Shown here: piece by piece, positions 20,983 through 64,000 of the stretch
Position numbering within the stretch: the stretch's first letter is position 1
Layout: each line of letters begins with the position of its first letter
Assembly (NCBI GenBank): GCA_022710975.1
Contig: JAKLGA010000009.1
Span: forward strand, 245,547-309,546
Origin: Myxococcota bacterium
Lineage (GTDB): Bacteria; Myxococcota; B64-G9
Length of the DNA stretch: 64,000 nucleotides
Direction: 5' to 3'
Made by a program: the position numbers and the translations under genes
The notes under the pieces: model-generated
What the model was told of the DNA's origin: nothing
The model's input: only the letters and a program-made list of their open reading frames with translations
Database searches by the model: none

Positions 20983-22260
20983 TCAGTAGACGCAGTTCGG
21001 CGGGGTGGCGGGCTCGGCGGCCCCGTTGGTGACCGCGCTGAGGTGACCGGCGCTGTCCCCGCTGGCGCAGAAGTAGTTCCCGCGGATGTCGCCCTCGTTG
21101 CCGCCGCAGGCGCTGATCCAGCACCGCTTGCCCCCCAGGGTGTCGCCGCAGTCCCCGCTGTCGCAGTCGCGGTCGCTGCCGCAGCCGCTGGCGCAGTCGA
21201 TGCCCCAGTCGTCGTCCGAGCTCCAGGCGCCCATGTCGTGCGGGTCGTTCGCGTCCCAGGCGCGGAAACAGCGCGGCTCGCCGCCGTCGTAGTAGCGCGC
21301 GTTGCGGGCCTTGCACTGGTCCTCGGCGCTCGCCGCCGGCAGGCAGGTGGCGTTCTCGGCGCGCGAGCAGCAGTAGGAGGCGCAGTCGAAGTTGTAGAGG
21401 CAGGCCTGACCGTCCTGGAAGTGCAGGCCGCAGGCGCCGTCCTGGCAGCCGAACACCGCGCCGCAGGCGTGCTCCCGCAGCACGGTCGGATCGAGCTGGC
21501 AGGTGCCGCCGGGCTCGCACTTGCCGTCCCAGGGGCAGTTGACCAGCAGGGTCGGGGAGTCCGCGGCGCAGCGCCGCTCCGGCAGCATGCCGTCCTGATC
21601 GGCCAGGGCGCAGTACAGGTCGCGGCCGACGGCGCCGGCGATCACCCAGCTGTAGGTGATCGGCTGCTGGAACCCCGCGGCCAGGCAGAGGTAGACCGTA
21701 CCGTTGCAGTCCCTGCGCTGGCAGGCGTGCGCGAAGTCGCACGGTCCCAGGCAGCAGAAGCCGTCGGCGCCCAGGTTCTGGCAGGTCTCGCCCGCGCCGT
21801 TGTCGCAGGGCAGGCAGGCCCAGCCGCAGTGGGTCGAGTCCTCGCAGGGCTTGCACTGGTCAGTGGCCTCGTCGCAGTACTGGCTGGGCAGGCAGCCGTC
21901 GGGGCAGGGCGCCCCGTCGGCGCCGTCGGGCTGCTCGTCGGCGCCGTCGGGCTGCTCGTCCGTGCCGTCGGGCTCCTCGTCAGCGCCGTCGGGCTGCTCG
22001 TCGGCGCCGTCGGGCTGCTCGTCCACGCCGTCCGGGCCCGCGTCCCCGTCGTCGGCCGCGTCGGCGTCGGTGCCGTCCGGGCCGCCGTCCGGAGGGGTCT
22101 CGTGTACGCATACGCCGCCGTTGCACACGTGACCCGAGGGGCACCCGCCGCCCGCCGCACAGCTCGTGCCCTCGTAGCTCGGGTGGTACACGCAGCCCGC
22201 CAAGGCCACGGCCAGGCCGGCGACCAGCAACCAGAGCGCGTTGATGCTTCGGTTCCTCAT
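20983..22260 (-). CDS. Cysteine-rich secreted lipoprotein with a 6x DEQPDGA tandem acidic repeat
   Basis: Internal Met MRNRSINALWLLVAGLAVALAGC (lipobox). About 50 Cys. DNA shows 21-bp tandem units at 21915-22045. Confidence 0.7.
   Translation of the reverse strand: MRNRSINALWLLVAGLAVALAGCVYHPSYEGTSCAAGGGCPSGHVCNGGVCVHETPPDGGPDGTDADAADDGDAGPDGVDEQPDGADEQPDGADEEPDGTDEQPDGADEQPDGADGAPCPDGCLPSQYCDEATDQCKPCEDSTHCGWACLPCDNGAGETCQNLGADGFCCLGPCDFAHACQRRDCNGTVYLCLAAGFQQPITYSWVIAGAVGRDLYCALADQDGMLPERRCAADSPTLLVNCPWDGKCEPGGTCQLDPTVLREHACGAVFGCQDGACGLHFQDGQACLYNFDCASYCCSRAENATCLPAASAEDQCKARNARYYDGGEPRCFRAWDANDPHDMGAWSSDDDWGIDCASGCGSDRDCDSGDCGDTLGGKRCWISACGGNEGDIRGNYFCASGDSAGHLSAVTNGAAEPATPPNCVY
21915..22045. 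repeat. 21-bp tandem repeat (about 6 copies, gccgtcgggctgctcgtcggc-like) inside the Cys-rich lipoprotein CDS
   Basis: Read directly in the sequence. Encodes PDGADEQ repeats on the minus strand. Confidence 0.8.
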
Positions 22261-24316: not shown

Positions 24317-24580
24317 CTCTCGCGGGCGCCAGGATCGACTCCACCCGCGCCACGCTTCCTGCCAAAGCCCCCACGCTTCCTGCCGCCCGCTAGGCGGATC
24401 CTCACGGGCGGTCTAACCTCCGCCACGGTTGCGCTGCGTATCCTCACAGGCGTGCCGCACATGCCCACGGGCGGAACAAGCTTCCATCCAGGAGGAACAC
24501 GTCTCTTCGAGGAAGAGGAAGGGAAGATGGACGGTCGGGGCTGGGTCCTCCCACCCGCGCGCGAGCTCGCTGGACAGGCG

Positions 24581-24766
24581 CCAGAAGTCGTCGGCTGGGC
24601 GCCACACATCGCTGCACGCACCCCAGAAGTCGCTGGCTGGGCGCCACACATCGCTGCACGCACCCCAGAGGTCGCCGGCTGGACGCCAGACATCGTTGCA
24701 CGCGCCCCAGAGGTCGTCGGCTGGACTCCAGACATCGCCGCACGCACGCCAGAAGTCGTGGGGACC
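24581..24766. repeat. 42-bp tandem direct repeat, about 4.4 copies (ccagaagtcgtcggctgggcgccacacatcgctgcacgcacc)
   Basis: Four full units with 3-6 substitutions each, then a partial fifth. No spacers, so not CRISPR. Coding status unresolved (14-aa PEVVGWAPHIAART repeats in one frame). Confidence 0.8.
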
Positions 24767-35380: not shown

Positions 35381-35529
35381 GGCTCCTCCCTGCGTGGATT
35401 CCTCGGGAGACTCCCCCTGCGCGCGGCCTGGGGGCCGCATGGCTACAGCGCGACTGAAATCGGGCCCCGTTTCCTGGAACAGCGAAGTTTCCACTGGCCA
35501 AACCCCGCGCGCGCGGTATTCATGAGCCC

Positions 35530-37710
35530 ATGATGGCCAGAGATCGGGTGGTCGATGGGTGGTTGCTCGTCGGGGTCCTGGGCTGGCTCGCGGCCGCGGG
35601 AGGGGCGCGCGCCGCGGAGGAAGAGGCTCCGCCCGCGGAGGCGGGCCGGGCAGCGGACGAGGAACAACCCGAGCTCGACGGGCTGCTCCAGGGTGTGCAG
35701 GACTACTCCCAGCTCGATCTCGGCCAGCTCCTGGGCCTGCCCGTGGTCGAGTCGGCCTCGCTCCGGCGCCAGTCCATCCTGGACTCGCCGGTCTCGATCT
35801 CGGTCCTGACCCGCGAGGAGATCGAGTCGAGCGGGGCGACGAACGTGGCCCAGCTCCTGCGGCGCCTGCCCGGGGTGCTGGTGCTGCAGGAGTCCGCCAA
35901 CGCCTACCTGGTCGGGGTGCGGGGGCTCAGCGCGCTCGGCAACAACCGCACCCTGCTGCTGGTCGACGGCAGCCCGGCCATGGACCGCATGACCGGGCTC
36001 CAGCTCTGGCCGGCGCTGGCGGTGCTGCCCGGCGATCTCGAGCGCATCGAGGTGATCCGCGGGCCGGGCGCGACGCTGTACGGCAGCGACGCCCTGAGCG
36101 GGGTGATCAACCTGGTGACCAAGCGGCCGGTCGATCACCCCGGGTTCGAGGCCACGGCCTGGGGTCTGCTCGATCTGATGGCGGACAGGCCCGACGGCAG
36201 CGCGGACGACGTCTGGATGGCCAACGGCGGCGGCGCGCACCTGGCCTACGCCTGGGCGGACGAGGGCCGCACGCTCGGGGTGCGCCTGGCCGGCGGGCTG
36301 GCCCTGGACCCGGAGTGGAGCCCCACGATCGCGACCCAGGAGAACGGTCCCCTGGCCTACGATCTGCGGGCCACCTTCGAGTACCGGCCCGACAAGAACC
36401 TGGAAGTCCTGGCCAGCTTCAGCCACGCCGCGGCGGAGACCAACCGGGTGCAGAACTGGATCCCGGTGCGCAACCCCATGCAGGTGCAGACCCTCAGCCT
36501 GCACCTGGAGAAGCGCGAGCTGGGGGTGGACTGGCTCACGCTCAGGCTGGACGTGGACGGGCACCGCCAGGCCATCGAGTACATCGCGCTGCCGCACCCG
36601 GAGGACTCGCTGTTCCAGCTGCTGCCGCTCGACATGTTCCGCATGCCGTGCGTCACCTGGGACGCGCACGTCCGGGCCCAGCTCGATCTGACCTTCTGGG
36701 ACCGGCGCGAGGTGCTGTCGGTGGGCGGGGAGGTGACCTACTTCGGGGTCGAGGAGTTCTACACCCAGCCGTGGATGGTGTTCGGCGGGGTGCTGGTGAA
36801 CAACGATCTCACCCTGCTGGACGACCGCTCGCTGATCCTGAGTCTGGGCGGCCGCTACGAGGCGGTGACCTCGCGCGAGGCGGACTTCGGCGAGATCCTC
36901 TACCAGCACCTCAGCCCCAAGGCGGCGCTCATCTGGAAACCCACCAGCGAGCACAGCCTGCGCCTGGCGGGCGGCTCGTCCTACCGCACCCCCCAGCCCA
37001 TGGAGACCTTCATCGACTGGTCGGTGCACGCCACCGACCCGAACGATCCGCCCTCCCACGTGCTGATCGGCAACCCGCGCCTGCTGCCCGAGCGGCTGTA
37101 CGGCGGCGAGCTCGGCTACCAGGGGCTGCTCTACGAGGGCCTGCGCCTGGACGCGGTGCTGTTCGGCCAGGCGGTGCAGGATCTGGTCGGCATGGTGCGC
37201 GAGACGCGCGTGCCGCTGTTCATGGAGAACGTCCAGGACCTCTACCAGGTCGGGCTGGAGCTGGCGCTGAGCTACAGCCTGGCGCAGGTCCTGCGCGCCT
37301 ACCTGAACTACACCTTCGTCTACAGCCTGGACGCCGAGAGCCTGGACGCGGTCAAGGACTGGCCCACGCACCTGTGGTCGTTCGGCCTGGAGGCCGCGCT
37401 GCCCGCGGAGGTGCGGCTCGGGCTGGACGTGGGCCTGGTGTTCGACTACCGGCCCCTGGTGGCCTCGGCCTCCTCGCCGACGACGGGCGTGGGCAGGCTC
37501 GACTGGAGCGCCCGGCAGGCCGCCGACGCGGCCCACATCGACCTGCGCCTGAGCAAGCGGCTGTTCGACGACCACGTGGAGGTATTCCTCATGGTGCGCA
37601 ACCTGGTGGGCTTCTTCCGCGAGCCGGCCGGGCTCAAGAGCATCCCGGAGGACTACGCCCTGCCCATCGGCGGCACCGTCCTGGCCGGCCTGCGCCTGGG
37701 CGGCTGGTGA
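35530..37710 (+). CDS. TonB-dependent outer-membrane receptor (copy 1)
   Basis: Plug-domain motifs (DSPVSISVLTREEIE, IEVIRGPGATLYGSDALSGVINLVTK). Beta-barrel-length C-terminus ending in an aromatic residue (…LRLGGW). Confidence 0.85.
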   Translation: MMARDRVVDGWLLVGVLGWLAAAGGARAAEEEAPPAEAGRAADEEQPELDGLLQGVQDYSQLDLGQLLGLPVVESASLRRQSILDSPVSISVLTREEIESSGATNVAQLLRRLPGVLVLQESANAYLVGVRGLSALGNNRTLLLVDGSPAMDRMTGLQLWPALAVLPGDLERIEVIRGPGATLYGSDALSGVINLVTKRPVDHPGFEATAWGLLDLMADRPDGSADDVWMANGGGAHLAYAWADEGRTLGVRLAGGLALDPEWSPTIATQENGPLAYDLRATFEYRPDKNLEVLASFSHAAAETNRVQNWIPVRNPMQVQTLSLHLEKRELGVDWLTLRLDVDGHRQAIEYIALPHPEDSLFQLLPLDMFRMPCVTWDAHVRAQLDLTFWDRREVLSVGGEVTYFGVEEFYTQPWMVFGGVLVNNDLTLLDDRSLILSLGGRYEAVTSREADFGEILYQHLSPKAALIWKPTSEHSLRLAGGSSYRTPQPMETFIDWSVHATDPNDPPSHVLIGNPRLLPERLYGGELGYQGLLYEGLRLDAVLFGQAVQDLVGMVRETRVPLFMENVQDLYQVGLELALSYSLAQVLRAYLNYTFVYSLDAESLDAVKDWPTHLWSFGLEAALPAEVRLGLDVGLVFDYRPLVASASSPTTGVGRLDWSARQAADAAHIDLRLSKRLFDDHVEVFLMVRNLVGFFREPAGLKSIPEDYALPIGGTVLAGLRLGGW

Positions 37711-37727: not shown

Positions 37728-38195
37728 ATGCGCGACTGCCTGGTGCGCCTTTCTGGTGTGGTGCTGGCGGGCGTCCTGGCCTGCGGCGCGGTGGCCTGCG
37801 GCGCGGACCTGCCCCCGGAGCGGCTGCTGGGGGTGGTGCAGGGCAACATCGTCTACCGCGGCCAGGGGCTGGAGGGGCAGACGGAGCCGCGGCTCTCCAT
37901 CGTCGTGCTGCTCGAGCCCTGGTCTCTCGACGACTGGGAGTCCTGGACCTTCCCCAACGCCTTCCGCATCTACGAGGCTGCCCCGCTCGCGCCCGATGGC
38001 CTGGACTTCGAGCTGACCCACCTGGAGCCCGGCCACTACGAGGTGCTGGCCTTCCTGGGCGTCGAGGGCCGTCCCAGCACCGAGCCGGTGGCCGTGGGCG
38101 CCTACCCGAACCTGCTCCAGATGGGCGATCGCCCGGTGGAGGTGCTCGAGGCTCAGGTCACCGAGGGCATCGACTTCGAGCTGTACGACTTCTAG
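37728..38195 (+). CDS. Companion lipoprotein of the TonB-dependent receptor (copy 1), carboxypeptidase-regulatory-like fold suspected
   Basis: Lipobox VLACGAVACG. Paralog of the 40631 ORF (shared YPNLLQMGDRPVEV...GIDFEL). Confidence 0.65.
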   Translation: MRDCLVRLSGVVLAGVLACGAVACGADLPPERLLGVVQGNIVYRGQGLEGQTEPRLSIVVLLEPWSLDDWESWTFPNAFRIYEAAPLAPDGLDFELTHLEPGHYEVLAFLGVEGRPSTEPVAVGAYPNLLQMGDRPVEVLEAQVTEGIDFELYDF

Positions 38196-38409
38196 CCCGC
38201 CGGGGTGGGCCCGTCCGGGATCGCACTGGCACCCCTGGACGGGCATGGCCCTCGAGAGCACACCCCGAGTTTCATGCCCCAAATGGGGAATTGATCCTCC
38301 CGATCCGCACAGGGTACTTTCGCCTGGTCACCCGGAAAGATGGGGTTCCGGCGTTGGCCCGGCCGCGGAGCCCGCGAGGCCCCGGACCGTGGCAAATGCG
38401 AGGGCGGGC

Positions 38410-40614
38410 ATGCGGTCGCACGCTTTCCGTGGGTGTGTGTGGTCGACAGGGCTGAAGTCATGTGCATTCCTCGCGTTCCTCCTGACAGGGCCACTTGCCG
38501 CTGCCAGGGAGGGCGAGCCAGGCGAGGATGGCGAGGTAGACGAAGAGCAGGGCGAGTCGGACGGCCAGGCCGGGGTCCTCGACGGCCTGCTCCAGGGCGT
38601 CAGCGACTACTCCGAGCTGGATCTCGGCCAGCTCCTCGAGCTCCCGCTGGTCGAGTCGGCGTCCCTGCGGCGGCAGTCCATCCTCGACTCACCGGTGACC
38701 GTGTCCGTGCTGACCCGGGATGAGATCGAGTCGAGCGGCGCGGTCAACGTGGCCCAGCTCCTGGCCCGGCTCCCGGGCGCGCTCGTGCTCCAGGAGGGCG
38801 CGAACACCTACTGGGTGGGGCTGCGCGGCCTGTCGGCCCTGGGCACGAACCGCACCATGCTGCACGTCGACGGCAGCCCGTTCCACGACCGCCTGACCGG
38901 GTTGCAGCTGTGGCCCATCCTGCCCCTGCTGCCCGCGGATCTGGAGCGCATCGAGGTCATCCGCGGCCCGGGCTCGATGCTCTACGGCAGCGACGCGCTG
39001 AGCGGGGTGATCAACCTGGTCAGCCGGCGGCCGCTCGATCACGCCGGGTTCGAGGCCTCGGGCTGGGGCCTGTTCAACCTGCTCGGCAGCCAGCCAGACG
39101 GGTCCTCCCCGCGCGTCTGGATGGAGAACGGGGGCGGGGCGAGCCTGGCCTACGGCTGGGTGGATCCCTCGGGGCAGCTGGGCCTGCGCGTCTCGGGAGG
39201 CTTCAACCACGAGCCGGAGTGGTCCAACCAGGCCGGTGACTTCGCCAACGGGCCGTTCGCCTACCAGGTCCGGGCCAGCCTCCAGCTCCTGCCCGATCCG
39301 TACTCGGAGCTGCGCCTGAACTTCGCCCACGCGGCGGCGGAGACGATGCGGGTGTTCGTGTTCTTCCCGGTGCGCAACCCCGTGTCCGCGCAGAGCCTGG
39401 ATCTGCACTACAGCCGCAGGCACCTGGGCGCCGACTGGCTCGGGCTGCGGCTGGACGCCGACGCGCACCGCATGACGGTCGAGTTCGTGTCGCTGCCGCA
39501 GGAGGATGATTCGCTGTTCGTGCTCATGCCCTTCGACCTGTTCAGCATCCCCAGCGAGAGCTACGACGCCCACCTCAGGCTCCAGCTCGACGCCAGCCTC
39601 TGGGAGGACCGTGAGCTCCTCAGCCTGGCCGGGGAGGTGACCTACTTCGGCGTGGCCGACTACACCTCCCGGCCCTGGATGCTGTTCGGCGGGGTGCTGC
39701 TGAACAACGACCTCGTCCTGCTGGACGATCGCTCGTTGATCATCAGCCTCGGCGGCCGCTTCGACTACGTGCGCTCCCACGAGGGATCCTTCGGCGACAT
39801 ACGCTACCGCCACCTGAGCCCCAAGGCGGCGCTCATCTGGAAGCCGGCGCCGGATCACAGCCTGCGCCTGTCGGGCGGCTCGGCCTTCCGCACCCCGCAG
39901 CCGGCCGAGACCTCGATCGACTTCCAGGTGCGGCCGGGCGGCCCGGACGGGCCGGCAGCCCACGTGCTGGTCGGCAACCCCCGTTTGCAGCCCGAGCGGC
40001 TGTACGGGCTGGAGCTCGGCTACCAGGGCAAGCTGTGGCAGGGGCTGCGTCTGGAGGCGGTGGTGTTCGGGCAGCGCGTCGACGATCTGGTCGGGCTGAC
40101 CCGGGAGACGCGCGCGCCGATCTTCAAGGAGAACGTGCAGAGCGTGCACCAGGCTGGGCTGGAGCTGTCGCTGCGCTACCTGGACCCGGACCGGGTGCGC
40201 GCCTCCCTGAGCTACACCTTCATCTACAGCCTGGACGCGGACACGGGCGCGGTGGTCAAGGACTGGCCCATGCACCTCTGGTCCCTGGGTGCGGACGTCG
40301 AGCTCGGCCTGGGCTTCAGCCTGGGCGTGCAGGCCGGCCTGCAGTTCGACTACCGCCCGCTGGTGGCCGTGCCCATCACCCCGGATCTCGGCACCATGCG
40401 CATCGAGTGGCAGCCCCGCCAGGCCGCGGATCAGGCCCGCGTGGACCTGCGGCTCGGCAAGCGGCTCTTCGACGGCACGGTGGAGATCTTCCTGATGGCC
40501 CGCAACCTGGCCGGCTTCTTCCGCGAAGCCCAGGGGCTGCAGGGCATCCCCATGGATTACGCACAGCCGATCGGCGGCAGCCTGCTCCTGGGCGTGCGCG
40601 CCGGCGGATTCTAG
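38410..40614 (+). CDS. TonB-dependent outer-membrane receptor (copy 2, paralog)
   Basis: Internal Met MRSHAFRG... Collinear with copy 1 through plug and barrel (roughly 50% identity by eye). Confidence 0.85.
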   Translation: MRSHAFRGCVWSTGLKSCAFLAFLLTGPLAAAREGEPGEDGEVDEEQGESDGQAGVLDGLLQGVSDYSELDLGQLLELPLVESASLRRQSILDSPVTVSVLTRDEIESSGAVNVAQLLARLPGALVLQEGANTYWVGLRGLSALGTNRTMLHVDGSPFHDRLTGLQLWPILPLLPADLERIEVIRGPGSMLYGSDALSGVINLVSRRPLDHAGFEASGWGLFNLLGSQPDGSSPRVWMENGGGASLAYGWVDPSGQLGLRVSGGFNHEPEWSNQAGDFANGPFAYQVRASLQLLPDPYSELRLNFAHAAAETMRVFVFFPVRNPVSAQSLDLHYSRRHLGADWLGLRLDADAHRMTVEFVSLPQEDDSLFVLMPFDLFSIPSESYDAHLRLQLDASLWEDRELLSLAGEVTYFGVADYTSRPWMLFGGVLLNNDLVLLDDRSLIISLGGRFDYVRSHEGSFGDIRYRHLSPKAALIWKPAPDHSLRLSGGSAFRTPQPAETSIDFQVRPGGPDGPAAHVLVGNPRLQPERLYGLELGYQGKLWQGLRLEAVVFGQRVDDLVGLTRETRAPIFKENVQSVHQAGLELSLRYLDPDRVRASLSYTFIYSLDADTGAVVKDWPMHLWSLGADVELGLGFSLGVQAGLQFDYRPLVAVPITPDLGTMRIEWQPRQAADQARVDLRLGKRLFDGTVEIFLMARNLAGFFREAQGLQGIPMDYAQPIGGSLLLGVRAGGF

Positions 40615-52801: not shown

Positions 52802-53868
52802 TCACGGCACGGGGACGATTCTGACCTCGAGCCGGGTGAGGTAGGCGCCCTGGGTCCAGGTGAAGCCGCCAGCCTTCAGGGAGCTCAAGCTCAGCGGGTC
52901 GGCCTGCACCCCCCCGATGAACTCGTAGTCGGTCACGTCGCTGTCGTAGGCCATGAACATCCAGCTATCCGTGGCGTAGATGTCCTCCTGGAAGGACTCG
53001 TTCCACACGGGGTTGTAGTTGTCCGACTTCTCCGTGGTGCTGAAGATTGGCTGCCCGGTGTCCGGGTCCGAGTTGCGGTAGACGCGGACGATCGGATCGG
53101 GCATGCCGCCCGGGAAGTCCCACGCGTCGCCGGACTGGTCGTAGTCGGAGACCGTGGCCGAGACGATGGTGAAGGTGTACCGCCGACCGTAGGCCGGCAC
53201 GCAGTCCCCGCCGATGCACAGCGAGCTCGAGTCGCACACAGCGTGGCTCGCGCAGGTGCAGCGCCCCGTGGCGTCGCAGCCCTGGCCCGTGGGGCAGGTG
53301 CCGCACGACTGCCCGCAGGTGGGATCCGGGCCGCACTCCCGGCCGGTGCAGGTCGGGGTGCAGCCGCCCACGCACAGGCCGTTCCCGTCGCAGGTCTCCC
53401 CGGTCGGGCAGCTGCCGCACGCGGCCTGGCCGCCGCACCCGTCGTCCCAGGAGCCGCACTCGTGGCCGAGCTGGGGGCAGGTGGCGGGCGTGCACGAGCC
53501 GCACCAGCCGTCGTTGTCGAGCACGTCGACGATGTTGTTCCCGCAGGCGGAGCTCTCGATGCACCCGGACAGGATGTTCTCGGGGATGACATAGTCGATG
53601 AGGTCCAGGGTGCAGCTTCCGTCCTCGAAGGTGTGGTCATCCCCGTACGTGAGGCAGGTGCAGTCGCCGTCGTAGACCAAGGGGTACTTGCCCTGGGTCA
53701 CACAGTCGCACTGACAGCAGTCGCGGCCGAGGCAGTAGGTGCCTACTGCCTGGTACACCTGCATCGCCACCCTGGTGCAGTCGTCCTCCGCGTTGCCTCC
53801 CTCGCCGCCGCAGCCGGCGAGCAGGGCAACGAGCATCAGCGCAATCGTCCACTTGCCTTTCCTCATGG
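52802..53868 (-). CDS. Cysteine-rich lipoprotein with CGxCPTGxxCDxxGxC repeats and a C-terminal C2-like (Ca2+/lipid-binding) beta-sandwich
   Basis: SD AGGAGG. Lipobox LLAGCG. CGSCPTGETCDGNGLC / CGTCPTGQGCDATGRC repeats. C-terminal ...RVYRNSDPDTGQPIFSTTEKSDNYNPVWNESF resembles a C2 domain. Confidence 0.65.
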
Positions 53869-56896: not shown

Positions 56897-57025
56897 AGGT
56901 CAGCACCGTACCCGGCGAGGTGCCGCCAGGTCTTGCCTCCCATTTGACCTCTGTCAGTCGCTTGCTGCTCAGGCTGCGGGAGGTGGGGTCGCGATCGGAC
57001 GATTCGGAAGAGGGCGGCGTGAGAG

Positions 57026-59326
57026 CTATTCGATGGCGATGATGTACACCGCCCCAGAGTTGGTTCCAAGAGTATCCTGCGTGTAGTCCCCAACGATTGC
57101 AGTGCTCCCGCTGAGCGAAACTGAGTTTCCAAAGGAGTCGATCCCTTCGGTCACAGGTGAATCTACACGCAGGAGCAGGCTCCAGGTTGCGTCTGGATTG
57201 CGGCGGAAGAAGTGAACGTCGTTTTCGGTATGGCTACTTCCGACAGCTAGAGTGTCATTGAACAGGCTTACAGATAGGCCAAAACCATTCTGGGCTGGTG
57301 AGCTTGGTAATACCTTAGCCTCGTGCTCCCATGTGTTTGACCCCGTTCTCCTGAAGATGTAAACAGCTCCGGAACCGGTCGTTATGCCGTCCTTTCCTTG
57401 CGCTCCCATGGCGATCCAGTCGCCATAGATACTTGCCGCAAAGCCGAAATTGTCGTCGGCTGCAGCGTCGTAAGCCACGATCTCAGTGGCGTTACCCCAC
57501 GAATTTACGTCGGTACGTTGAAACACAAATGCCGTTCCAGCCCCTCCACTAGCGCCGACGACTGCGTAGTCTCCATCGACTGCAACTGAGGATCCAAAGC
57601 CTTGCCCGCCCGGCGCGGCGATGACCGTGCCAGCATCCCAAGTGTTTTCTCCAGTGCGATGATATATGTACGCTGTGTTGGCGTTCCGGGCTCCAACGAT
57701 GGCATAGTCACCACTGAGGCAGACAGCGGCTCCGAAGAAGGCGCCTCCCTGGAACCTTACTCCAGCATCCCAGGAATTGATGTCTGTTCTGTGAAAAATA
57801 TACGCTGAATTTTTCCGGTGTTCACCGACAATTGCATAGTCACCACTGATCGAGACGAACATGCCGAAATTCGAATTCACTTCAGGATTGTGGGAGTACA
57901 CCCTTGTCCCAGTGTCCCACATGTTCGGCCCAGTCCTGTGGATGATGTGCGCTGAGCCAGCATTCGAGTCCACACCATAGGAACCGATTATCGCATAGTC
58001 CCCATCAATTGCTACCCCCGTCCCAAAGTATCCATACTCTGAGGGCTCAGGTGAATAGAGCTCGGATATGTCAACACAGATGCTCTGATTGATGCACGAC
58101 TCTCCTTCACGGCAGCATGTTCCGTTGCAGACCACCCAGCCGCAGTTGCAGCTTCCACTGGCATCGCAGAGTTCGCCAGCCTCACATGTTCCGCAATCGA
58201 ACCCACCGCGCGGCGAAGGACCGCACAGCCTCCCGACGCAATCATCGAAGCATTGGCCATCAGCATCACACCATTCAGTTGCACCCGGACAAGTACCACA
58301 ACTGTATCCTGCGTTGGGAGATGGCCCACAGCTTCGACCGATGCAGTCATCCTCACATTGGCCAGCAGCAGTGCAGTATTCTGTCGCCCCGCCACATGTT
58401 CCACAGTTATGTCCATCGTTGGGCGACGGTCCACAAGTTCGGCCCAGGCAGTCGTCAACGCATTGACCAGCGCTTGTGCAATAATCCGTCACTCCTTGGC
58501 AACTCCCGCAATCAAGGCTCAAGTGAGGCGAAGGACCGCAGACTCTTCCAAGGCAATCGTCACCGCACTGGCCGCCATCGGAGCAATAGTCGTCTGCCAC
58601 TGAACATACCCCGCATGAAAGGCCAAGTGTAGGCGACAGCCCACAAATTCGCCCAACGCAGTCGTCAATGCAATGGCCCTCTGGATCGCAGTACTCTGTC
58701 TGGAGAGCACAGGAACCGCAGAAGAAGCCCGGACGGTTTGGGGATGCACCGCAGACCCTGCCAGCGCAGTCGTCCAGGCACTGCCCCGCGGCCGTGCAGT
58801 AGTCGTTCTCTCCGCTGCAGGTCCCGCAGGTGTGGCCGAGCGTCGGGGAGAGGCCGCACTCCAGGCCCGCGCAGTCATCCACGCAGGCCCCCTCCTCCGA
58901 GCAGTACTCATCCTCTCCCTCGCATCCGCCGCAGTCGAACCCCGCCACGGGCGAGGTCCCGCACCGGCCCAGACAGTCGTCGATGCACTGGTTTCCGGCA
59001 GGGACACAGTACTGGGTCGGGCCTGAACAGCTGCCGCAGAGCTTTCCGATGTTCGGCGACTGACCGCAGAACCGTCCAGCGCAGTCGTCGATGCATACCT
59101 TGGCTGGCGTGCAGTACAGGTCCCCATCACAGGTGCCATCGGAGTAGCAGGGCTCGCCGAGGTTTCCAGCCGCGAAGCATCGGTAGTCGACGCAGGCCAG
59201 GCCGCTGTTGCAGGTACCGTTGTCCCTGCACGGTTCGCCGGAGTGGCCGACCCCGTGGAGGCCGATGTCGCAGCCTGCGGCACCGGCCAGCAGCGAAGCC
59301 AGGATGACGAGCGTGGAGTTGCGCAT
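57026..59326 (-). CDS. Lipoprotein with ~9 tandem Cys-rich repeats (DDCxGRxCGxSPxxGxxCGxCxGxxxYCxxxGxC) and C-terminal FG-GAP-type beta-propeller repeats. Reduced GC.
   Basis: SD GGAGGTG before the Met at 59326. Lipobox LLAGAAGC. Repeated GDYAIVG...FG.SV...GDYA blades. Confidence 0.7.
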   Translation of the reverse strand: MRNSTLVILASLLAGAAGCDIGLHGVGHSGEPCRDNGTCNSGLACVDYRCFAAGNLGEPCYSDGTCDGDLYCTPAKVCIDDCAGRFCGQSPNIGKLCGSCSGPTQYCVPAGNQCIDDCLGRCGTSPVAGFDCGGCEGEDEYCSEEGACVDDCAGLECGLSPTLGHTCGTCSGENDYCTAAGQCLDDCAGRVCGASPNRPGFFCGSCALQTEYCDPEGHCIDDCVGRICGLSPTLGLSCGVCSVADDYCSDGGQCGDDCLGRVCGPSPHLSLDCGSCQGVTDYCTSAGQCVDDCLGRTCGPSPNDGHNCGTCGGATEYCTAAGQCEDDCIGRSCGPSPNAGYSCGTCPGATEWCDADGQCFDDCVGRLCGPSPRGGFDCGTCEAGELCDASGSCNCGWVVCNGTCCREGESCINQSICVDISELYSPEPSEYGYFGTGVAIDGDYAIIGSYGVDSNAGSAHIIHRTGPNMWDTGTRVYSHNPEVNSNFGMFVSISGDYAIVGEHRKNSAYIFHRTDINSWDAGVRFQGGAFFGAAVCLSGDYAIVGARNANTAYIYHRTGENTWDAGTVIAAPGGQGFGSSVAVDGDYAVVGASGGAGTAFVFQRTDVNSWGNATEIVAYDAAADDNFGFAASIYGDWIAMGAQGKDGITTGSGAVYIFRRTGSNTWEHEAKVLPSSPAQNGFGLSVSLFNDTLAVGSSHTENDVHFFRRNPDATWSLLLRVDSPVTEGIDSFGNSVSLSGSTAIVGDYTQDTLGTNSGAVYIIAIE

Positions 59327-59327
59327 C

Positions 59328-61016
59328 TTACCACCTCCCCCCAAAGGAGAAGGTCGCTCCACCGTCGGTGGGGACGATGGAGAGCGCTTCCGGGTGGTCC
59401 TTGAACCACTCCCTGTCCTCTGGCGCCATGAACCACAGGACGGCGCCGGCCACGAGCAGGGCGAAGCCGGTGCCGAAGCTCGCGTACATGACGCCCGCCC
59501 AGGTCCGGCTCTTCCCGGCGGCGTCCGGGTCTCCTGCCTTGTCGTCATCCCCGTACGTGTAGGTGAGGCCGGTCGCGGCCGCTCCGAGCACCGACAACCC
59601 CACGCCCGACCAGAAGAGCCCGTGAGCCCACCTGGCCATCGGGTTCATGGGGTAGATCCGGGCCAGGGACAGGGCGACCACGGCTTCTTGCCCCGCCTGG
59701 AGATCGACCTCCTGGACCACTCCCACGTGGCCCTCCAGCGTGGCCTCGATCCGGTACTTCCCCGCAGGGAGATCCCTCCTCAGGGGGGCGGAGGCGCCCG
59801 GCTCCTGGCCGATGGCGACGAGCGCACCGGGCGGATCCGTCTCGACGACGAGGCTCGCCGGCGGAATCGTCCGCAAGGCCACCTTCAATTCGGTTCGCAT
59901 CCCGTTGGCGATCACGAACTCCCGCCTCTCGGGCAGGTACCCCTCCATCTCGATGACCGCGAAGTACGAACCAGCCTCCAGGTTGTTGGCCGCAAAGGGG
60001 GCCTCAGCCTCGGCCAGGGTCTGCCCTTCCGAGTTCTCCAGCGACACATTGGCCCCCCTGGGCTCCGAGGTGACCCACAAGACACCGGGCTGGGTGTTCC
60101 TCAGGGTGATCTTCAGGGTGGTGTCCTTGTTGGATTCCACGGTCACCTGGTACTGGTTGGCGGCGAAGCCCTCGAGCTCCGCGGTCACCTTGTAGGTGCC
60201 CTCGCGCAGCGCGACCAGGATGGGCGAAGGCCCCAGCTTGTTGTAGCCGCTGATCAGCACAGAGGCGCCAGCCGGCTCCGTCGTGACCGTGAGCCGTCCC
60301 GGAACGATCTCCCGCAGCAGCCTCTGCCCCTCTGCCTCGTAGGGATTGTCGCCGGCGTACGCGGAGAGGAAATGATGGAGCAAGCGCACTCTCGTTTCCA
60401 GCTGGACGGACTCATCCTTCGCCAGAGAGTAGAGGTACGACCAGTTGCTCCTTATCTCTTCCTGCAGCTCCTTGGCATTCCTGGTGTCCTTGAGTAGCTC
60501 CTCGAACTCGAGCACCGCCTGTGTGGAGCCCGCTTCCCTGGCTTTCGCGGGCTGGCAGAGCTTCGCGGCGATCGTCCTGATGGCCGCCAGCAGTGATTCC
60601 TCCTTGCAGGTGGAATCACCCGTCGCGGCGCCCTCCGTGGCGGCTTTCTTCAGATCATAGAGTGTCGCGGTCACCTGGCAGGTGTTGCCGATCTTCAGGA
60701 TCTGGGAGGAGAGGGTCTTCTGCGCGGCCAGCTCCCCGCCGAGCTCGATCTGGCAGCTCGCGTCGTAGCAGGCCTTGTAGCTGTCCTTCTTCTGCTGGAC
60801 CAGCCTCTCCTTGATCTGTTCGCGGGGAACCAGGCCGAATCCGCACTCGGCCAGGCTGGCCGAGAGAAACTCCGTCAGGTTCTGCCGGGTCTTCGGGTCG
60901 AGCCCCGAGCCGCGGTCCTCCATGTCGAACACGGCCACGAGGGGCAGGTTCTGCCCCTGGGCCACGCTGGGCCATACGGGAAGGCCAATGACCGCCAGCA
61001 AGACTAGCCGCCTCAT
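59328..61016 (-). CDS. Secreted protein with three PEGA domains and a C-terminal TM segment
   Basis: Internal Met MRRLVLLAVIGLPVWPSVAQG. PEGA-like TTEPAGASVLISG...YKVTAELEGF (x3). Confidence 0.65.
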   Translation of the reverse strand: MRRLVLLAVIGLPVWPSVAQGQNLPLVAVFDMEDRGSGLDPKTRQNLTEFLSASLAECGFGLVPREQIKERLVQQKKDSYKACYDASCQIELGGELAAQKTLSSQILKIGNTCQVTATLYDLKKAATEGAATGDSTCKEESLLAAIRTIAAKLCQPAKAREAGSTQAVLEFEELLKDTRNAKELQEEIRSNWSYLYSLAKDESVQLETRVRLLHHFLSAYAGDNPYEAEGQRLLREIVPGRLTVTTEPAGASVLISGYNKLGPSPILVALREGTYKVTAELEGFAANQYQVTVESNKDTTLKITLRNTQPGVLWVTSEPRGANVSLENSEGQTLAEAEAPFAANNLEAGSYFAVIEMEGYLPERREFVIANGMRTELKVALRTIPPASLVVETDPPGALVAIGQEPGASAPLRRDLPAGKYRIEATLEGHVGVVQEVDLQAGQEAVVALSLARIYPMNPMARWAHGLFWSGVGLSVLGAAATGLTYTYGDDDKAGDPDAAGKSRTWAGVMYASFGTGFALLVAGAVLWFMAPEDREWFKDHPEALSIVPTDGGATFSFGGRW

Positions 61017-61084: not shown

Positions 61085-62752
61085 TCACTCGCTGGGCCAG
61101 CCGTTGAGGCCCTTCATGGCCTCGAACTCCGACGGGTCGGGGTAGCGAGAGCACTCCTGGACGGCCATGCCGGTTTTTACGTGGTACATGGATGGCTTCT
61201 TCCGGTCCAGCCTCAGGGCCACGCAGAAGCTGTCCCGGATCATCTGGCCGAAGGCGTTCGGCGCGTCCACCACGACGTGCACGATGTACAGGTCACCGCG
61301 GTTGGCGACCACGTTGACCACCTGGAACACCGCCTCCATCGGCGAGCGCAGGTTCTCCAGGATCTCGCTCCGGGCGGCCAGCTTGGCCTCCCGGTGGTGG
61401 GCCTTGCCCCATGCGAGCAGCGTCCGCTCGGCCTGCTTCTCGGCGCGCTCGGCCGCGGCCTCGCGCCTGGCCTCGACAGCGTCCGCCTGGTCCAGGACCG
61501 CCTGGCAGCTCTTCGTGTGGCGCTCCGAGTCCATCCCCAGGCACTCGTTGGCCGCCTCCCGGGCCGCCTCCAGATCGCCTCGCGCCAGGACGGTCCTCGC
61601 CTTCGCGAGCTGCGCGTCCGCGCGGCGCAGGTCCACCTTCGCCGTCAGCGCTGCCAGGGCCAGCGCCCCGGGGTCGTCCTTGGGCAGCAGCCCGGCCGGT
61701 GCGGCCGCCTCGTCGGTGGTCTCCGCGGCCGCGTCGAGATCGCCCTTGGCCAGGGCCTTCTCGATCTGCTTCACGGCCGCGGCCACCAGGCGCTGGCGCT
61801 CGGCGCGATCGATCTCGTCCTGCTTCTGGCGTTCCGAGGCGCGGGCCTGCTGGAGCCTGACCCGCAGCTCGGCCAGGCCGGCCGTGTCCTTGTCGAAGGT
61901 GTCGGCGCTCCGGAGGGCGGCCTCCGCCTTGTCCAGCCCGCCCGCCTCCATGGCTACCCTGGCCTGGGCGGTGAAGGCCACGGCCTTGAGCTTGTGCAGC
62001 GGGAGGGTGGCCAGCCTGTTGCCTTCCGAGTGGATCACCGCGTCTTCCCACGCCGACGGCTCTTCCCAGACCCTGCGCAGGCGTTCCTTCAGCCCGATGC
62101 GCAGCTCGCCGCGGGCGTCGGTCCTGCCCAGCGGCAGCGGCCTCTCCAGGCTCCTGTGCACCAGGGAGAGCTCCACGTCCGCTGCCGGCGTCTCGCGGCA
62201 CCAGCGCAGGTCCCGGCCCTTCTCGACGGTGACCTCGGGGATCTCCTCCTCGTAGTCCGCGTTCCGCGCGGCCTCGGCGGTGAACCAGATCAGCACGGGC
62301 ACCGACGCGCCCACCCCGCCCACGCCGCCCCACTTCAGGACCTCGAGCGTCGTCTCGGACGGGCCGTCGACCGGATCGGGCTCGGCCGCGGCGCCCACGA
62401 TGGCCAGGATGGAGCCGCCGATCAGCAGGAAGCCCCCGAGCACCGCCGGGAACCAGGGGCCGAAGCCGCCGGCCTGCTCCCGGACCACGAAGTGGGTGCC
62501 GGCCTTCTTCACGAAGTGGGGCAGGGCGCACTCCTCGCGGCGCGTGAGCCTGCAGACGGCCTGCATGCCTGGCTCCTCCTGGCATTGCCCGAGGAGCTCG
62601 GTCTTGCCCGTGGGCGTCTCGGCGCCGTCGAAACGGCCGATCTCGCGCCACTCGTCCCGCGTGGTGACGTTCTGCGCCATGCAGCCCGGCAGCTGCGCGG
62701 TGAGCAGCGCGGGGAGCAGCATGGCCAGGATGGGTCGCAGGAACGCCCTCAT
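61085..62752 (-). CDS. Hypothetical lipoprotein with central coiled-coil/Ala-rich region
   Basis: Lipobox LTAQLPGC. An internal TM-like segment (FPAVLGGFLLIGGSILAIVGAAA) precedes the long AEAALR/DLEAAREA-type helical region. Confidence 0.55.
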   Translation of the reverse strand: MRAFLRPILAMLLPALLTAQLPGCMAQNVTTRDEWREIGRFDGAETPTGKTELLGQCQEEPGMQAVCRLTRREECALPHFVKKAGTHFVVREQAGGFGPWFPAVLGGFLLIGGSILAIVGAAAEPDPVDGPSETTLEVLKWGGVGGVGASVPVLIWFTAEAARNADYEEEIPEVTVEKGRDLRWCRETPAADVELSLVHRSLERPLPLGRTDARGELRIGLKERLRRVWEEPSAWEDAVIHSEGNRLATLPLHKLKAVAFTAQARVAMEAGGLDKAEAALRSADTFDKDTAGLAELRVRLQQARASERQKQDEIDRAERQRLVAAAVKQIEKALAKGDLDAAAETTDEAAAPAGLLPKDDPGALALAALTAKVDLRRADAQLAKARTVLARGDLEAAREAANECLGMDSERHTKSCQAVLDQADAVEARREAAAERAEKQAERTLLAWGKAHHREAKLAARSEILENLRSPMEAVFQVVNVVANRGDLYIVHVVVDAPNAFGQMIRDSFCVALRLDRKKPSMYHVKTGMAVQECSRYPDPSEFEAMKGLNGWPSE

Positions 62753-63005
62753 GTCACCTCCTCGTGGATCGTCGCGGAAGGGTCTCCTCCGAGCGTAGTG
62801 CCCGACCCGCCTCGGCTTCTACAGCCGATAGTCATCATGGGCGGGACCAGACTTCTGCCCGACTGGAAGGGAGGACGACCATGGGCGTGGGAATCTGACC
62901 GGTTGGGCAGAGAAAACGGCGTGCGAGTGTGCTAGAATTCCACTTCGTTGGTGCTCTGGCGAGGAACCGACGCTGAAGCCGTGGCGCAAGAGGGAGGTGG
63001 ATTCC

Positions 63006-64000
63006 ATGGGTCTCGAGGAAGAACTCGAGCGAAATCAAGCTGCACTGGAGGAGATTATTGAGATCACTTGTGAGAGACCCGATTCGATCATCCTGTTCCT
63101 ACCTGTAGATTCTGGTGAACGGTTGGCTGAAGCAGAAAAGGCGAGGCTTGCTTTCCCAAAGCTGTTCGGACTTGAGCCGAAGTTATGTTCCGCTGAAAAC
63201 GCTTTGTTGTCTGCTAGCACGAGGGATGCGAAATCTGAAGCGAACCCTCTGCGACATTGTGTATTCGGTATAAAGCGGATGTCTATCGGAAGCCTCACCC
63301 AACAGATCGATCGGCTGCCGAGGTCACTATCCATCTATTGCGATGCAAATTGGTTGTCGGGGTCGATGGCTTTTAGGGCATTCCTGTTGAAACACTACTA
63401 CATTCGATGGTTGGTTTGGATTGATAACGAGAGAGTGACTTGCTCTATTCCTGCCGTGATTTCTAGATTAGTTCTTATTCGCGCCATTGCGAAGGGTAGT
63501 TCGACTCCGCCATTGCTTCGGGTGGCTTCGATTATGGGTAACGATCTTACAGCCTCAGTTGATAGGATTAGAGAGTGCCGAAGGATGAAATCAGTCGGTG
63601 ACTATGGACGGACGATTATCATAGCATCTAGTGAATCGCTACTTCCGGGTATGCCTTGGTTCTTTGGCAGCTTTCAAAAAGACCACTTTGAAAATCTCGG
63701 GGCCTTTAGCGAGCTGATCAAGATTGGAGAGGCGGTGCACCTTCGTGATGTAGCTGCCCTTCTCCGCCCAATCGCAAAGGGTGCTTTCGGAAAAGATGAT
63801 ATTGATGAAGACGAGTCGACACCTGGGGATAAAGGTGTCCCATGCTACTGTGGCTCTGATGTTTGCGCGGACGGAACGCTAAGGAATCCTAGCCGCTATG
63901 TTCCTAGGGATTCTGTTGACAAGGACAACCTTCTTCTTGAAGGAGATATTCTGGTTCCTTCGGTTTACTCGGGAACACTGCTGCCAACCGCAAGGATCAG
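63006..64000 (+). CDS. Partial ORF of unknown function in a low-GC segment (>331 codons, no stop before window end)
   Basis: SD GGAGGTG before ATG at 63006. Open frame to 64000. Visual GC about 47% vs about 70% elsewhere. Not in the ORF track because it has no stop. Confidence 0.5.
   Translation, partial: MGLEEELERNQAALEEIIEITCERPDSIILFLPVDSGERLAEAEKARLAFPKLFGLEPKLCSAENALLSASTRDAKSEANPLRHCVFGIKRMSIGSLTQQIDRLPRSLSIYCDANWLSGSMAFRAFLLKHYYIRWLVWIDNERVTCSIPAVISRLVLIRAIAKGSSTPPLLRVASIMGNDLTASVDRIRECRRMKSVGDYGRTIIIASSESLLPGMPWFFGSFQKDHFENLGAFSELIKIGEAVHLRDVAALLRPIAKGAFGKDDIDEDESTPGDKGVPCYCGSDVCADGTLRNPSRYVPRDSVDKDNLLLEGDILVPSVYSGTLLPTARI

Follow-up and report, generated by a model that had tools for sequence, protein, structure and literature searches.

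A PEGA/cap-lipoprotein gene pair of an uncultured myxobacterium with a probably recombinant lipoprotein gene

A 64-kb stretch of contig JAKLGA010000009.1, assigned to a Myxococcota bacterium, was analyzed (hereafter the window; mean GC content 0.709, standard deviation 0.053 over 400-bp windows). Two adjacent genes on its minus strand encode a protein with PEGA domains, termed here the PEGA partner, and a lipoprotein composed of a cysteine-rich cap, a stalk of cysteine repeats and a beta-propeller head. Their coordinates are collected in Table 1. The PEGA partner is identical to NCBI HOX45653.1 ("Myxococcota bacterium") and the neighbouring RmuC to HOX45651.1. An original prediction, made from the letters of the sequence, described the two genes as overlapping; the junction reads TGG TAA G ATG, with one base between stop and start. 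The operon that it also proposed was supported, as a tightly coupled pair, by this one-base junction and by the same layout in other cassettes described below.

The lipoprotein carries the signal sequence MRNSTLVILASLLAGAAGC with the lipobox LAGAAGC. Its start codon is backed by the lipobox (MRNSTLVILASLLAGAAG-C) and by the ortholog in a related locus, L001, while an upstream start giving a longer open reading frame (ORF) of 840 residues was without support, and the start giving 766 residues was preferred. The L001 ortholog and the cap-lipoproteins of other cassettes share the lipobox and its cysteine, and the window protein is predicted from these sequences to be N-terminally lipidated at the lipobox cysteine. 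The cap reads C-D-I-G-L-H-G-V-G-H-S-G-E-P-C-R-D-N-G-T-C-N-S-G-L-A-C and is followed by a second, similar cysteine knot; the general cap pattern, C-[D]-x...G-x-P-C-x...G-x-C-x-x-G-L-x-C, is found in the window as C-DIGLHGVGHSGEPCRDNGTCNSGLAC.

The stalk (residues 80-395) consists of nine repeats of 34-36 residues with six cysteines each, in agreement with the nine cysteine-rich tandem repeats predicted. Their consensus is DDCxGRxCGxSPxxGxxCGxCxGxxxYCxxxGQC, with the cysteine spacing C-x4-CG-x9-CG-x-C-x6-C-x6-C. The repeat structure expected at the DNA level was recovered by seed-and-extend repeat finding (eight copies at 105/108-nt spacing, 60-73% identical) but not by Tandem Repeats Finder, which reported no array in this DNA because the repeats are too diverged. 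No Pfam or NCBIfam family matched residues 80-395 at E<0.01, and there was no EGF, LDLa or TIGR02232-type match. In the AlphaFold2 (AF2) model the stalk is a string of small beta-hairpin modules, with a predicted local distance difference test (pLDDT) score of 87-94; the first cap knot was poorly modelled. Foldseek searches with the stalk model returned weak, generic matches to LRP2/megalin and VLDLR (E ~1e-5, template modelling (TM) score ~0.1, probability 0.3-0.7, identity 13-18%).

Based on Pfam, the head is an FG-GAP_2 propeller (PF14312; score 156.8 bits, gathering threshold 23, E 1.5e-46). Seven stretches were matched, and seven G-D-Y-A-I-V-G-type motifs were counted in the propeller half, which points to a seven-bladed propeller in place of the approximately eight blades predicted earlier. 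Apart from this count, the overall domain architecture of the original prediction was essentially borne out by Pfam and repeat dissection. A sequence search of the PDB gave no solved relative for either protein, and NCBIfam gave nothing specific in either. Residues 303-511 of the lipoprotein also showed a weak similarity (27% over 218 residues, E 6e-8) to the product of a neighbouring C2-domain gene (52919-53515, minus strand), which may reflect another cysteine-rich segment.

In the PEGA partner a signal peptide and an N-terminal domain are joined by a helical spacer to three PEGA beta-sandwiches. After these come a helical hairpin and a short, conserved tail ending in ...FSFGGRW. The three predicted PEGA domains were recovered by Pfam (PF08308) in three stretches (112.3 bits against a cut-off of 20.8, E 1e-32). 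The AF2 model (mean pLDDT 79) shows an alpha/beta N-domain, a 60-residue helix with a helical bundle, three beta-sandwiches, two helices of ~35 residues and a disordered tail. Foldseek matched the N-domain to PelC (5t11), GNA1162 (4hrv), LpoB (4q6l/4q6z) and the N-domain of TolB with target-normalised TM scores of 0.54-0.61, and the PEGA domains to TIE, PitA and usher domains and to Ig-like and CarboxypepD_reg folds. The description of this protein as simply secreted does not fit its two C-terminal hydrophobic helices. These segments are conserved across homologs with the same tail, and the model predicts that the PEGA partner is membrane-anchored by the C-terminal helical hairpin.

The GC content, determined in 100-bp windows, is 0.45-0.60 at 57,001-58,700 and 0.67-0.73 on either side; the low-GC span occupies the 3' 1.7 kb of the lipoprotein gene only. 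The flanks, like the window mean, agree with the approximately 70% given earlier, and the 50-60% attributed to both genes holds for the 3' part of the lipoprotein gene but not for its 5' part or for the PEGA gene (GC 0.65, with ~0.62-0.70 along its length). At third codon positions (GC3) the ordinary genes of the window have values of ~0.87-0.98 and the PEGA gene 0.883. Lipoprotein codons 1-200 have a GC3 of 0.76-0.88, up to 0.95 in part through codon 184; codons 201-766 have 0.40-0.66 in 50-codon windows, with a minimum of 0.18-0.32 in repeats 7-8 (40-codon windows). The GC dip is real, far beyond background and limited to 1.7 kb of one gene, and the PEGA gene and the first ~190 lipoprotein codons look near-native in codon usage. 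The break in composition starts within the repeat array, at neither a gene nor a domain boundary, and the PEGA gene lies outside it. Two paralogous cassettes on a 429-kb contig have GC3 values of 0.96-0.99 (partner genes) and 0.72-1.0 (lipoprotein genes). Since these cassettes, which probably belong to the same genome, are native in GC3, low GC3 is not a trait of the family.

A genome scan with the PEGA protein identified a single close relative, L001, with the same gene pair. Its PEGA protein is 84% identical and is followed, without a gap, by an 807-residue lipoprotein ortholog with ten repeats. The flanking genes of the window (64 kb) and of the L001-type contig (15-18 kb flanks) all differ, and only the gene pair is shared. 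The labels of the metagenome-assembled genomes (MAGs) carrying L001 conflict, the same contig sequence, present in GCA_035913415.1 and in a TPA MAG, being filed under "Fibrobacteria" in one of the two and under "Verrucomicrobiota" in the other. Homologs of the neighbouring sigma-54 regulator at up to 70% identity are all from Myxococcota; L001 was taken as a myxobacterium, the conflicting labels being probably binning or label errors, and for this reason they were not accepted as a sign of inter-phylum transfer.

The comparison with L001 revealed two histories in one gene. In the PEGA gene the synonymous divergence (dS) is 0.30 and the nonsynonymous divergence (dN) 0.10; in lipoprotein codons 20-195 they are 0.47 and 0.11, the 5' part being ~85% identical. 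In codons 196-766 the proportion of differing synonymous sites (pS) is 0.80, that is, saturated, with a dN of 0.29, and the nucleotide identity of the 3' part is 53-70%. The dN/dS ratio is well under 1. The maximum chi-square method placed the break at codon 191 (chi2 264, a value reached in 0 of 200 permutations). Counted in 60-nt blocks over codons 140-259, the identical nucleotides number 55, 59, 49, 44, 33 and 30. Through codon 184 the nucleotide identity to L001 is 0.8-0.95 and GC3 0.76-0.95; silent differences set in abruptly at about codon 187 (window position ~58,768), where the residues of repeat 4 (NRP...CGSCALQTEYCD) are still shared. Repeats R1-R4 correspond one-to-one to R1-R4 of L001 with 70-100% amino acid identity; R5-R9 are without a positional counterpart there and are equally similar to unrelated proteins.

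A second strain of the window organism (L006/L007, ERZ795054/55; HRY96599.1) was found to differ from the window at only 13 positions in 10.7 kb. These 13 are confined to 182 bp (60686-60867, PEGA codons ~50-110), and at each of them the strain agrees with the L001-type allele; within positions 150-331 of its PEGA gene every allele-distinguishing site is L001-type, and none outside. Either a short stretch was recombined between the lineages or the tract is an artefact of assembler bubbles, the latter being possible because both organisms co-occur in those samples and identical stretches of 57-62 nt flank the tract.

The gene pair is not confined to these two lineages. Homologs of the PEGA partner have a highly conserved N-domain of ~150 residues and a C-terminus of one of two classes, either a two-helix hairpin with a "...VFSLGGRW/F" tail, as in the window, or a barrel resembling outer membrane proteins (OMP-like). 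A metagenome scan with the family alignment yielded 72 loci with related partner genes. A cap-lipoprotein gene follows the partner in 9/9 distinct loci of the tail type, against 1/44 with other C-terminus types (Fisher p 2e-9); a fixed regular expression gave 8/9 and inspection by eye 9/9, the loci being distinct after curation and de-duplication. The cap motif across loci is C-D-V-x-L-P...G-x-P-C...G-x-C-x-x-G-L-x-C. Behind this common cap the stalk may be absent, the 35-residue repeat of the window lipoprotein, EGF-like, an 18-residue CxxC "GNWD" repeat, MopE-type or an acidic linker, and the heads are FGE-sulfatase, Lcl_C, FG-GAP/FG-GAP_3, BNR-like or FG-GAP_2. The 35-residue stalk repeat is rare (132 cluster representatives among 1.84 billion) and was found fused to FGE-sulfatase in 18 of 61 cases, VWA in nine, Lcl_C in four, FG-GAP_2 in three, and to others. 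In one protein (P0152) PEGA and FGE-sulfatase are present in a single chain. Two further cassettes, L020 and L014, were found independently. The window pair shows all the marks of the cassette, namely the conserved N-domain, PEGA domains, hairpin, ...G-G-R-W/F-type tail, coupled junction and cap. A search of the literature on PEGA-domain proteins gave no description of the pairing of a PEGA protein with a cap-lipoprotein, and the cassette is apparently undescribed and without an entry in Pfam, NCBIfam or PADLOC.

The junction of the two genes, which reads ...GGG GGG AGG TGG TAA G ATG, is itself conserved. As first called, the lipoprotein genes of tail-type loci started at -29 to +3 nt relative to the partner; when the junctions were re-read, the starts lay 1-3 nt past the stop codon. 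In 12 cassettes the partner ends in ...GGGAG(G)-TGG/TTC-stop with the lipoprotein ATG 1-3 nt on (9 nt in L014), and the purine-rich hexamer is kept where the tail residues differ (ASGSW, LQGGF, AGGKW). The location of a Shine-Dalgarno sequence within the tail codons of the partner implies that the lipoprotein would be translated by coupling to the PEGA partner. A scan for promoters and terminators was uninformative.

Further copies were observed beside the window pair. A 429-kb contig (ERZ795054 NODE_14; L025, L027, L050, L063), which equals the window-type contig in coverage, has four additional genes encoding the partner N-domain. Two of these belong to complete cassettes, one with an FG-GAP_3 and one with an Lcl_C head, and the window organism therefore probably has at least three cassettes. 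In L014 (3393-6302) a single PEGA partner is followed by two tandem, paralogous lipoprotein genes with cysteine repeats and Lcl_C heads (498 and 433 residues); in front of the second, the tail/Shine-Dalgarno junction of the partner recurs as a duplicate. Genes for TIR, SIR2 and DUF87 proteins lie directly downstream of this tandem.

We consider it likely that the pair is a copy of a conserved myxobacterial envelope cassette whose lipoprotein gene is recombinant at its 3' end. Judged by composition and silent-site divergence, the low-GC tract has an evolutionary history separate from its surroundings. The 3' ~1.74 kb of the gene, from the interior of R4 to the stop codon, would have been replaced by the matching part of a much more diverged, lower-GC copy of the same gene, the 5' crossover having occurred inside repeat 4 of the conserved array. 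The tract covers the end of R4, R5-R9, the cysteine-rich linker and all of the propeller, down to and including the stop codon. The signal sequence, the cap, repeats 1-4 and the PEGA gene would share recent ancestry with the sister lineage. The closest relative of the propeller is the L001 ortholog (~57%); the other hits, from a search of 5.8 billion proteins, reach at most 44% identity. The best hits outside the Myxococcota that had been anticipated were found in so far as the matches outside named Myxococcota are at 30-44%, but the nearest one is myxobacterial. Because of this the donor was probably another carrier of the same gene and not an unrelated phylum. The horizontal acquisition put forward in the original prediction was thereby retained for the foreign-looking 3' two-thirds of one gene, but the operon as a unit was not shown to be foreign. 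Its operon-wide island was not upheld: codon usage is near-native both in the PEGA gene and in the first quarter of the lipoprotein gene, which are 84% and ~85% identical, respectively, to the L001 ortholog pair. The original prediction had also named composition at the genome average, together with orthologs in conserved synteny, as counting against it: the compositional mismatch concerns only part of one gene, and the micro-synteny of the pair is kept in L001 although the flanks differ.

Several observations weigh against a simple replacement in a conserved cassette. Neither the protein search, nor scans of metagenome and viral sequences, nor blastn against plasmids turned up a donor of the low-GC tract closer than L001. 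Only one related lineage was at hand for comparison, and which lineage was replaced was judged mainly by composition. The 3' half of the L001 gene is itself somewhat depressed in GC3 (0.52-0.74 against ~0.85) and may have its own replacement history, so that both lineages were possibly replaced. The tract ends exactly at the stop codon, and downstream of this point no homology for a second crossover was evident. As for the cassette, two cap/stalk lipoproteins (P0013, P0032) are without a PEGA partner, and none was seen for a third (P0038), the upstream gene of which is cut by the contig end.

It is possible, though we regard it as unlikely, that the whole operon was acquired from an L001-like lineage (GC ~62-65%) and that the 3' part, with its very low GC, represents another, separate layer. 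The gene pair is the sole content shared by the window and the L001-type contig, but rearrangement would explain the differing flanks equally well. The GC3 of the PEGA gene (0.883) and of the lipoprotein 5' part (0.76-0.95) is below that of the paralogous partners (0.96-0.99) and near the L001-type norm of 0.80-0.92; the former value is nevertheless within ~1.3 standard deviations of the window genes. The window-type and the L001-type organism are found together in the same samples. A pair of sigma-54 regulators (L094 and L016) has a dS of 0.60, above the 0.30 of the cassette, but the composition of L094 is unlike that of the window organism, so that this is no sure baseline, and a second comparison (L050 with L045/46, organism of origin unverified) gave 71-88% nucleotide identity, which brackets the 82% of the cassette. 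Mobility genes, tRNA genes and flanking repeats, which might accompany such a transfer, are missing. Scanning the region with Rfam and for tRNA genes gave no hits, and no tRNA gene is present in the window. A repeat search detected no flanking repeats and no second copy of any part of the lipoprotein gene within the window, and there is no integrase marking an island at the gene pair. A genomic island or mobile element was rejected, there being neither a tRNA target nor flanking repeats, and the neighbours of the pair being RmuC and a lipoprotein gene of native GC. The upstream gene termed geneC (61085-62752) was excluded from the unit since it is missing from all other cassettes. PADLOC gave no defence-system match for the lipoprotein, the PEGA partner, geneC or other neighbours.

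An origin without any transfer is considered very unlikely. On this view the 3' part would have acquired its low GC3 and high divergence in situ, by relaxed codon selection, a local mutation bias or rapid diversifying selection acting on a binding domain that is exposed. Exposed binding domains often evolve fast, in keeping with the higher dN of the 3' part (0.29 against 0.11), and the GC3 of the L001 propeller is somewhat low too. The step, however, sits within a repeat and not at a domain boundary; saturated silent sites adjoin DNA with a dS of 0.3-0.5; selection on the protein cannot bring GC3 to 0.18-0.6 where the genome has ~0.94; dN/dS is well below 1; and the paralogous heads of the same genome are compositionally native.

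That the mosaic is an assembly chimera of two co-occurring strains, joined in the repeat array, is the least credible of these explanations and can be practically dismissed: window-type and L001-type organisms do co-occur in ERZ795054/55, a repeat array is a plausible site for a mis-join and an artefact of bubble resolution could underlie the short L001-type tract that one strain has in its PEGA gene, but the 3' part is not L001-type (only 53-70% nucleotide identity), the repeats are too diverged in DNA (60-73% identical) to confuse assemblers, and both junctions, with their native flanks (RmuC on one side), are identical in contigs of at least five samples. The locus is base-for-base the same in these metagenome contigs, the names of which (k141_, NODE_, JGI Ga) suggest several assemblers, and it is this identity across samples and apparently different assemblers that makes a chimera very unlikely. 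A diversity-generating retroelement (DGR) was considered, as FGE-sulfatase and PEGA proteins are known DGR targets, and was rejected, there being no template copy in the window and the strain differences in the PEGA gene not being adenine-specific.

The mosaic gene also affects annotation. In three JGI records (L004, L005, L008) the lipoprotein gene is called as 278 or 298 residues. The DNA is identical, and allelic variation was therefore rejected in favour of gene-caller artefacts; the odd composition of the gene seems to defeat gene callers. The exact 766-residue protein was not present in the large collection searched (15 billion proteins). Cassette-like families are under-represented in databases, since callers split or shorten such genes.

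We propose the following function. The PEGA partner would be a membrane-anchored scaffold that holds the lipoprotein via the conserved cap, and the disulfide-rich rod would project the propeller as the presumed ligand-binding head. If the outer part of the stalk and the head were exchanged, binding specificity would change with them. A role of the pair in adhesion or recognition at the cell envelope is plausible. The residue at position +2 after the lipidated cysteine is Asp in 9/14 family sequences. Asp at +2 retains E. coli lipoproteins in the inner membrane, a rule that is not established for myxobacteria.

Among known systems, the nearest in design are themselves myxobacterial, namely CglB/CglD and TraA/TraB; the window pair belongs to neither. 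CglB and CglD are integrin-like, cysteine-rich surface lipoproteins of the gliding machinery of Myxococcus xanthus (PMC9946355; bioRxiv 10.1101/2023.10.19.562135). They resemble the window lipoprotein in being myxobacterial lipoproteins with many disulfides, CglD having an EGF-like cysteine-rich stalk and an integrin-type binding domain; CglD is, moreover, surface-exposed and relies on partner envelope proteins, a design to which the window pair may be likened. There are also differences. CglB and CglD carry VWA, for which the window lipoprotein has no Pfam match, its head being an FG-GAP_2 propeller; the window stalk is a distinct 35-residue six-cysteine unit, unlike the EGF-like repeats of CglD; and the partner is a PEGA/hairpin protein, as opposed to the GltA/B/H/K outer-membrane module of the Cgl proteins, with no motility genes nearby.

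TraA of myxobacteria is described as a polymorphic receptor governing self-recognition (PMC3325183, PMC3820747, PMC6372800). The TraA/TraB system shares with the window pair a two-gene operon, a variable recognition domain with cysteine-rich tandem repeats and a membrane partner, and its alleles vary between strains. It differs in polarity: in TraA the PA14-like variable domain is N-terminal and the MYXO-CTERM anchor C-terminal, in the window protein the lipid is N-terminal and the propeller C-terminal. In the window lipoprotein, which ends with its last blade, no PA14 (Pfam) and no MYXO-CTERM (NCBIfam, E<0.01) was detected. TraB is OmpA-like, and the PEGA partner is unrelated to it.

The likeness to integrin alpha that was claimed earlier holds in part. 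A seven-bladed FG-GAP-type propeller, an elongated stalk and a membrane anchor are common to both, for the window as predicted from sequence. The window protein, however, matches PF14312 only and not PF01839, its stalk is made of cysteine modules and not of thigh/calf or other integrin stalk domains, its anchor is a lipid, and its neighbour is a PEGA protein in place of a VWA partner like the beta subunit. The N-domain of the PEGA partner has a fold like that of LpoB, PelC, CsgG, GNA1162 and the TolB N-domain, all periplasm-facing envelope proteins, several of them forming rings or bridging the membranes. There is no family match at the sequence level, and in the window this fold is fused to PEGA domains and a helical hairpin, in paralogs to an OMP-like barrel. 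Arrays of LDL-receptor class A and EGF modules, the best Foldseek matches of the stalk, are likewise extended rods of disulfide-rich modules of ~35-40 residues. With no Pfam match, another cysteine spacing and a TM score of ~0.1, this is a resemblance of design only.

Table 1. Positions of the gene pair and its parts in the window
Feature	Positions	Strand	Description and basis
Lipoprotein gene (cap, stalk, head)	57026..59326	-	766 residues; ORF, lipobox LAGAAGC, Pfam FG-GAP_2 x7
PEGA partner gene	59328..61016	-	562 residues; ORF, Pfam PEGA x3, AF2 model, GC3 0.883
Putative recombination breakpoint in repeat 4	58750..58775	-	maximum chi-square at codon 191; silent step at ~codon 187
Putative imported low-GC tract, ~1.74 kb	57026..58770	-	GC 0.45-0.60, GC3 0.18-0.66, pS 0.80
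Gene junction GGGGGGAGGTGG TAA G ATG	59324..59345	-	Shine-Dalgarno in the last PEGA codons (G-G-R-W)
Lipid-attachment Cys and N-terminal cap	59090..59272	-	residues 19-79; motif common to at least 10 distinct loci
Cysteine repeats R1-R4	58667..59089	-	residues 80-220; R1-R3 and start of R4 in native-type DNA
Cysteine repeats R5-R9	58142..58666	-	residues 221-395; repeat dissection, AF2 pLDDT 87-94
Cysteine-rich linker CNCGWVVCNGTCCREGESCINQSICV	58067..58141	-	residues 396-420; similar linker in P0038 and L001
FG-GAP_2 beta-propeller head	57029..58066	-	residues 421-766; PF14312, 7 stretches
N-terminal alpha/beta domain of PEGA partner	60609..60947	-	residues 24-136; most conserved part; many invariant residues in alignments
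Three PEGA beta-sandwich domains	59667..60299	-	residues 240-450; Pfam PF08308 x3, AF2 all-beta
Two long hydrophobic helices	59427..59642	-	residues 459-530; AF2 helices 459-493 and 497-530

Other features were observed in the window and in the L001 contigs. A second low-GC patch (0.47-0.55, ~2.7 kb) extends from window positions 62800-64000 on to ~65,500 in L006 (L006:1501-4200), with geneC on one side and the gene of a DEAD-box helicase on the other. Within this patch a plus-strand ORF of 756 residues starts at ~62,997 and runs off the window end (GC3 ~0.50); callers gave 304-355 residues, and no Pfam or PADLOC match was found for it. A low-GC block (0.46-0.56) also lies ~3 kb downstream of the L001 cassette (L001:11200-15588, equal to L016:15448 onward). 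Its product of ~930-980 residues matches thermolysin (Peptidase_M4_C) weakly, and the block bears no relation to the low-GC patches of the window. Two genes for TonB-dependent receptors (35458-37710 and 38017-40614) form a diverged tandem duplication with segments 70-79% identical at an offset of 2,888-2,904 nt. Arrays of a 21-nt tandem repeat were located at 21886-22053 and 24558-24758 (6 in-array copies each, 60-92% identical), presumably encoding 7-residue repeats.

Mosaic surface-protein genes are familiar in bacteria, and recombination alone is not surprising. What is new is a clean, datable case from a myxobacterium that is uncultured, the crossover being placed within a conserved repeat of the stalk, and a recurrent, translationally coupled cassette that places at least five different heads on a common cap. 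Tentatively, and with considerable doubt, we suggest that Myxococcota possess an undescribed family of two-gene envelope modules, each with a PEGA/LpoB-like scaffold and a cap-stalk-head lipoprotein, whose distal stalk and head are swapped between lineages by homologous recombination in the repeat array, giving a polymorphic adhesion/recognition set. If this were true, the window would represent one such head swap caught in the act, in a design analogous to that of TraA or the Cgl adhesins but made of unrelated parts. Since myxobacteria rely on cell-cell and cell-surface contact in motility, predation and development, the cassette family is a testable candidate for adhesion or recognition in these organisms.

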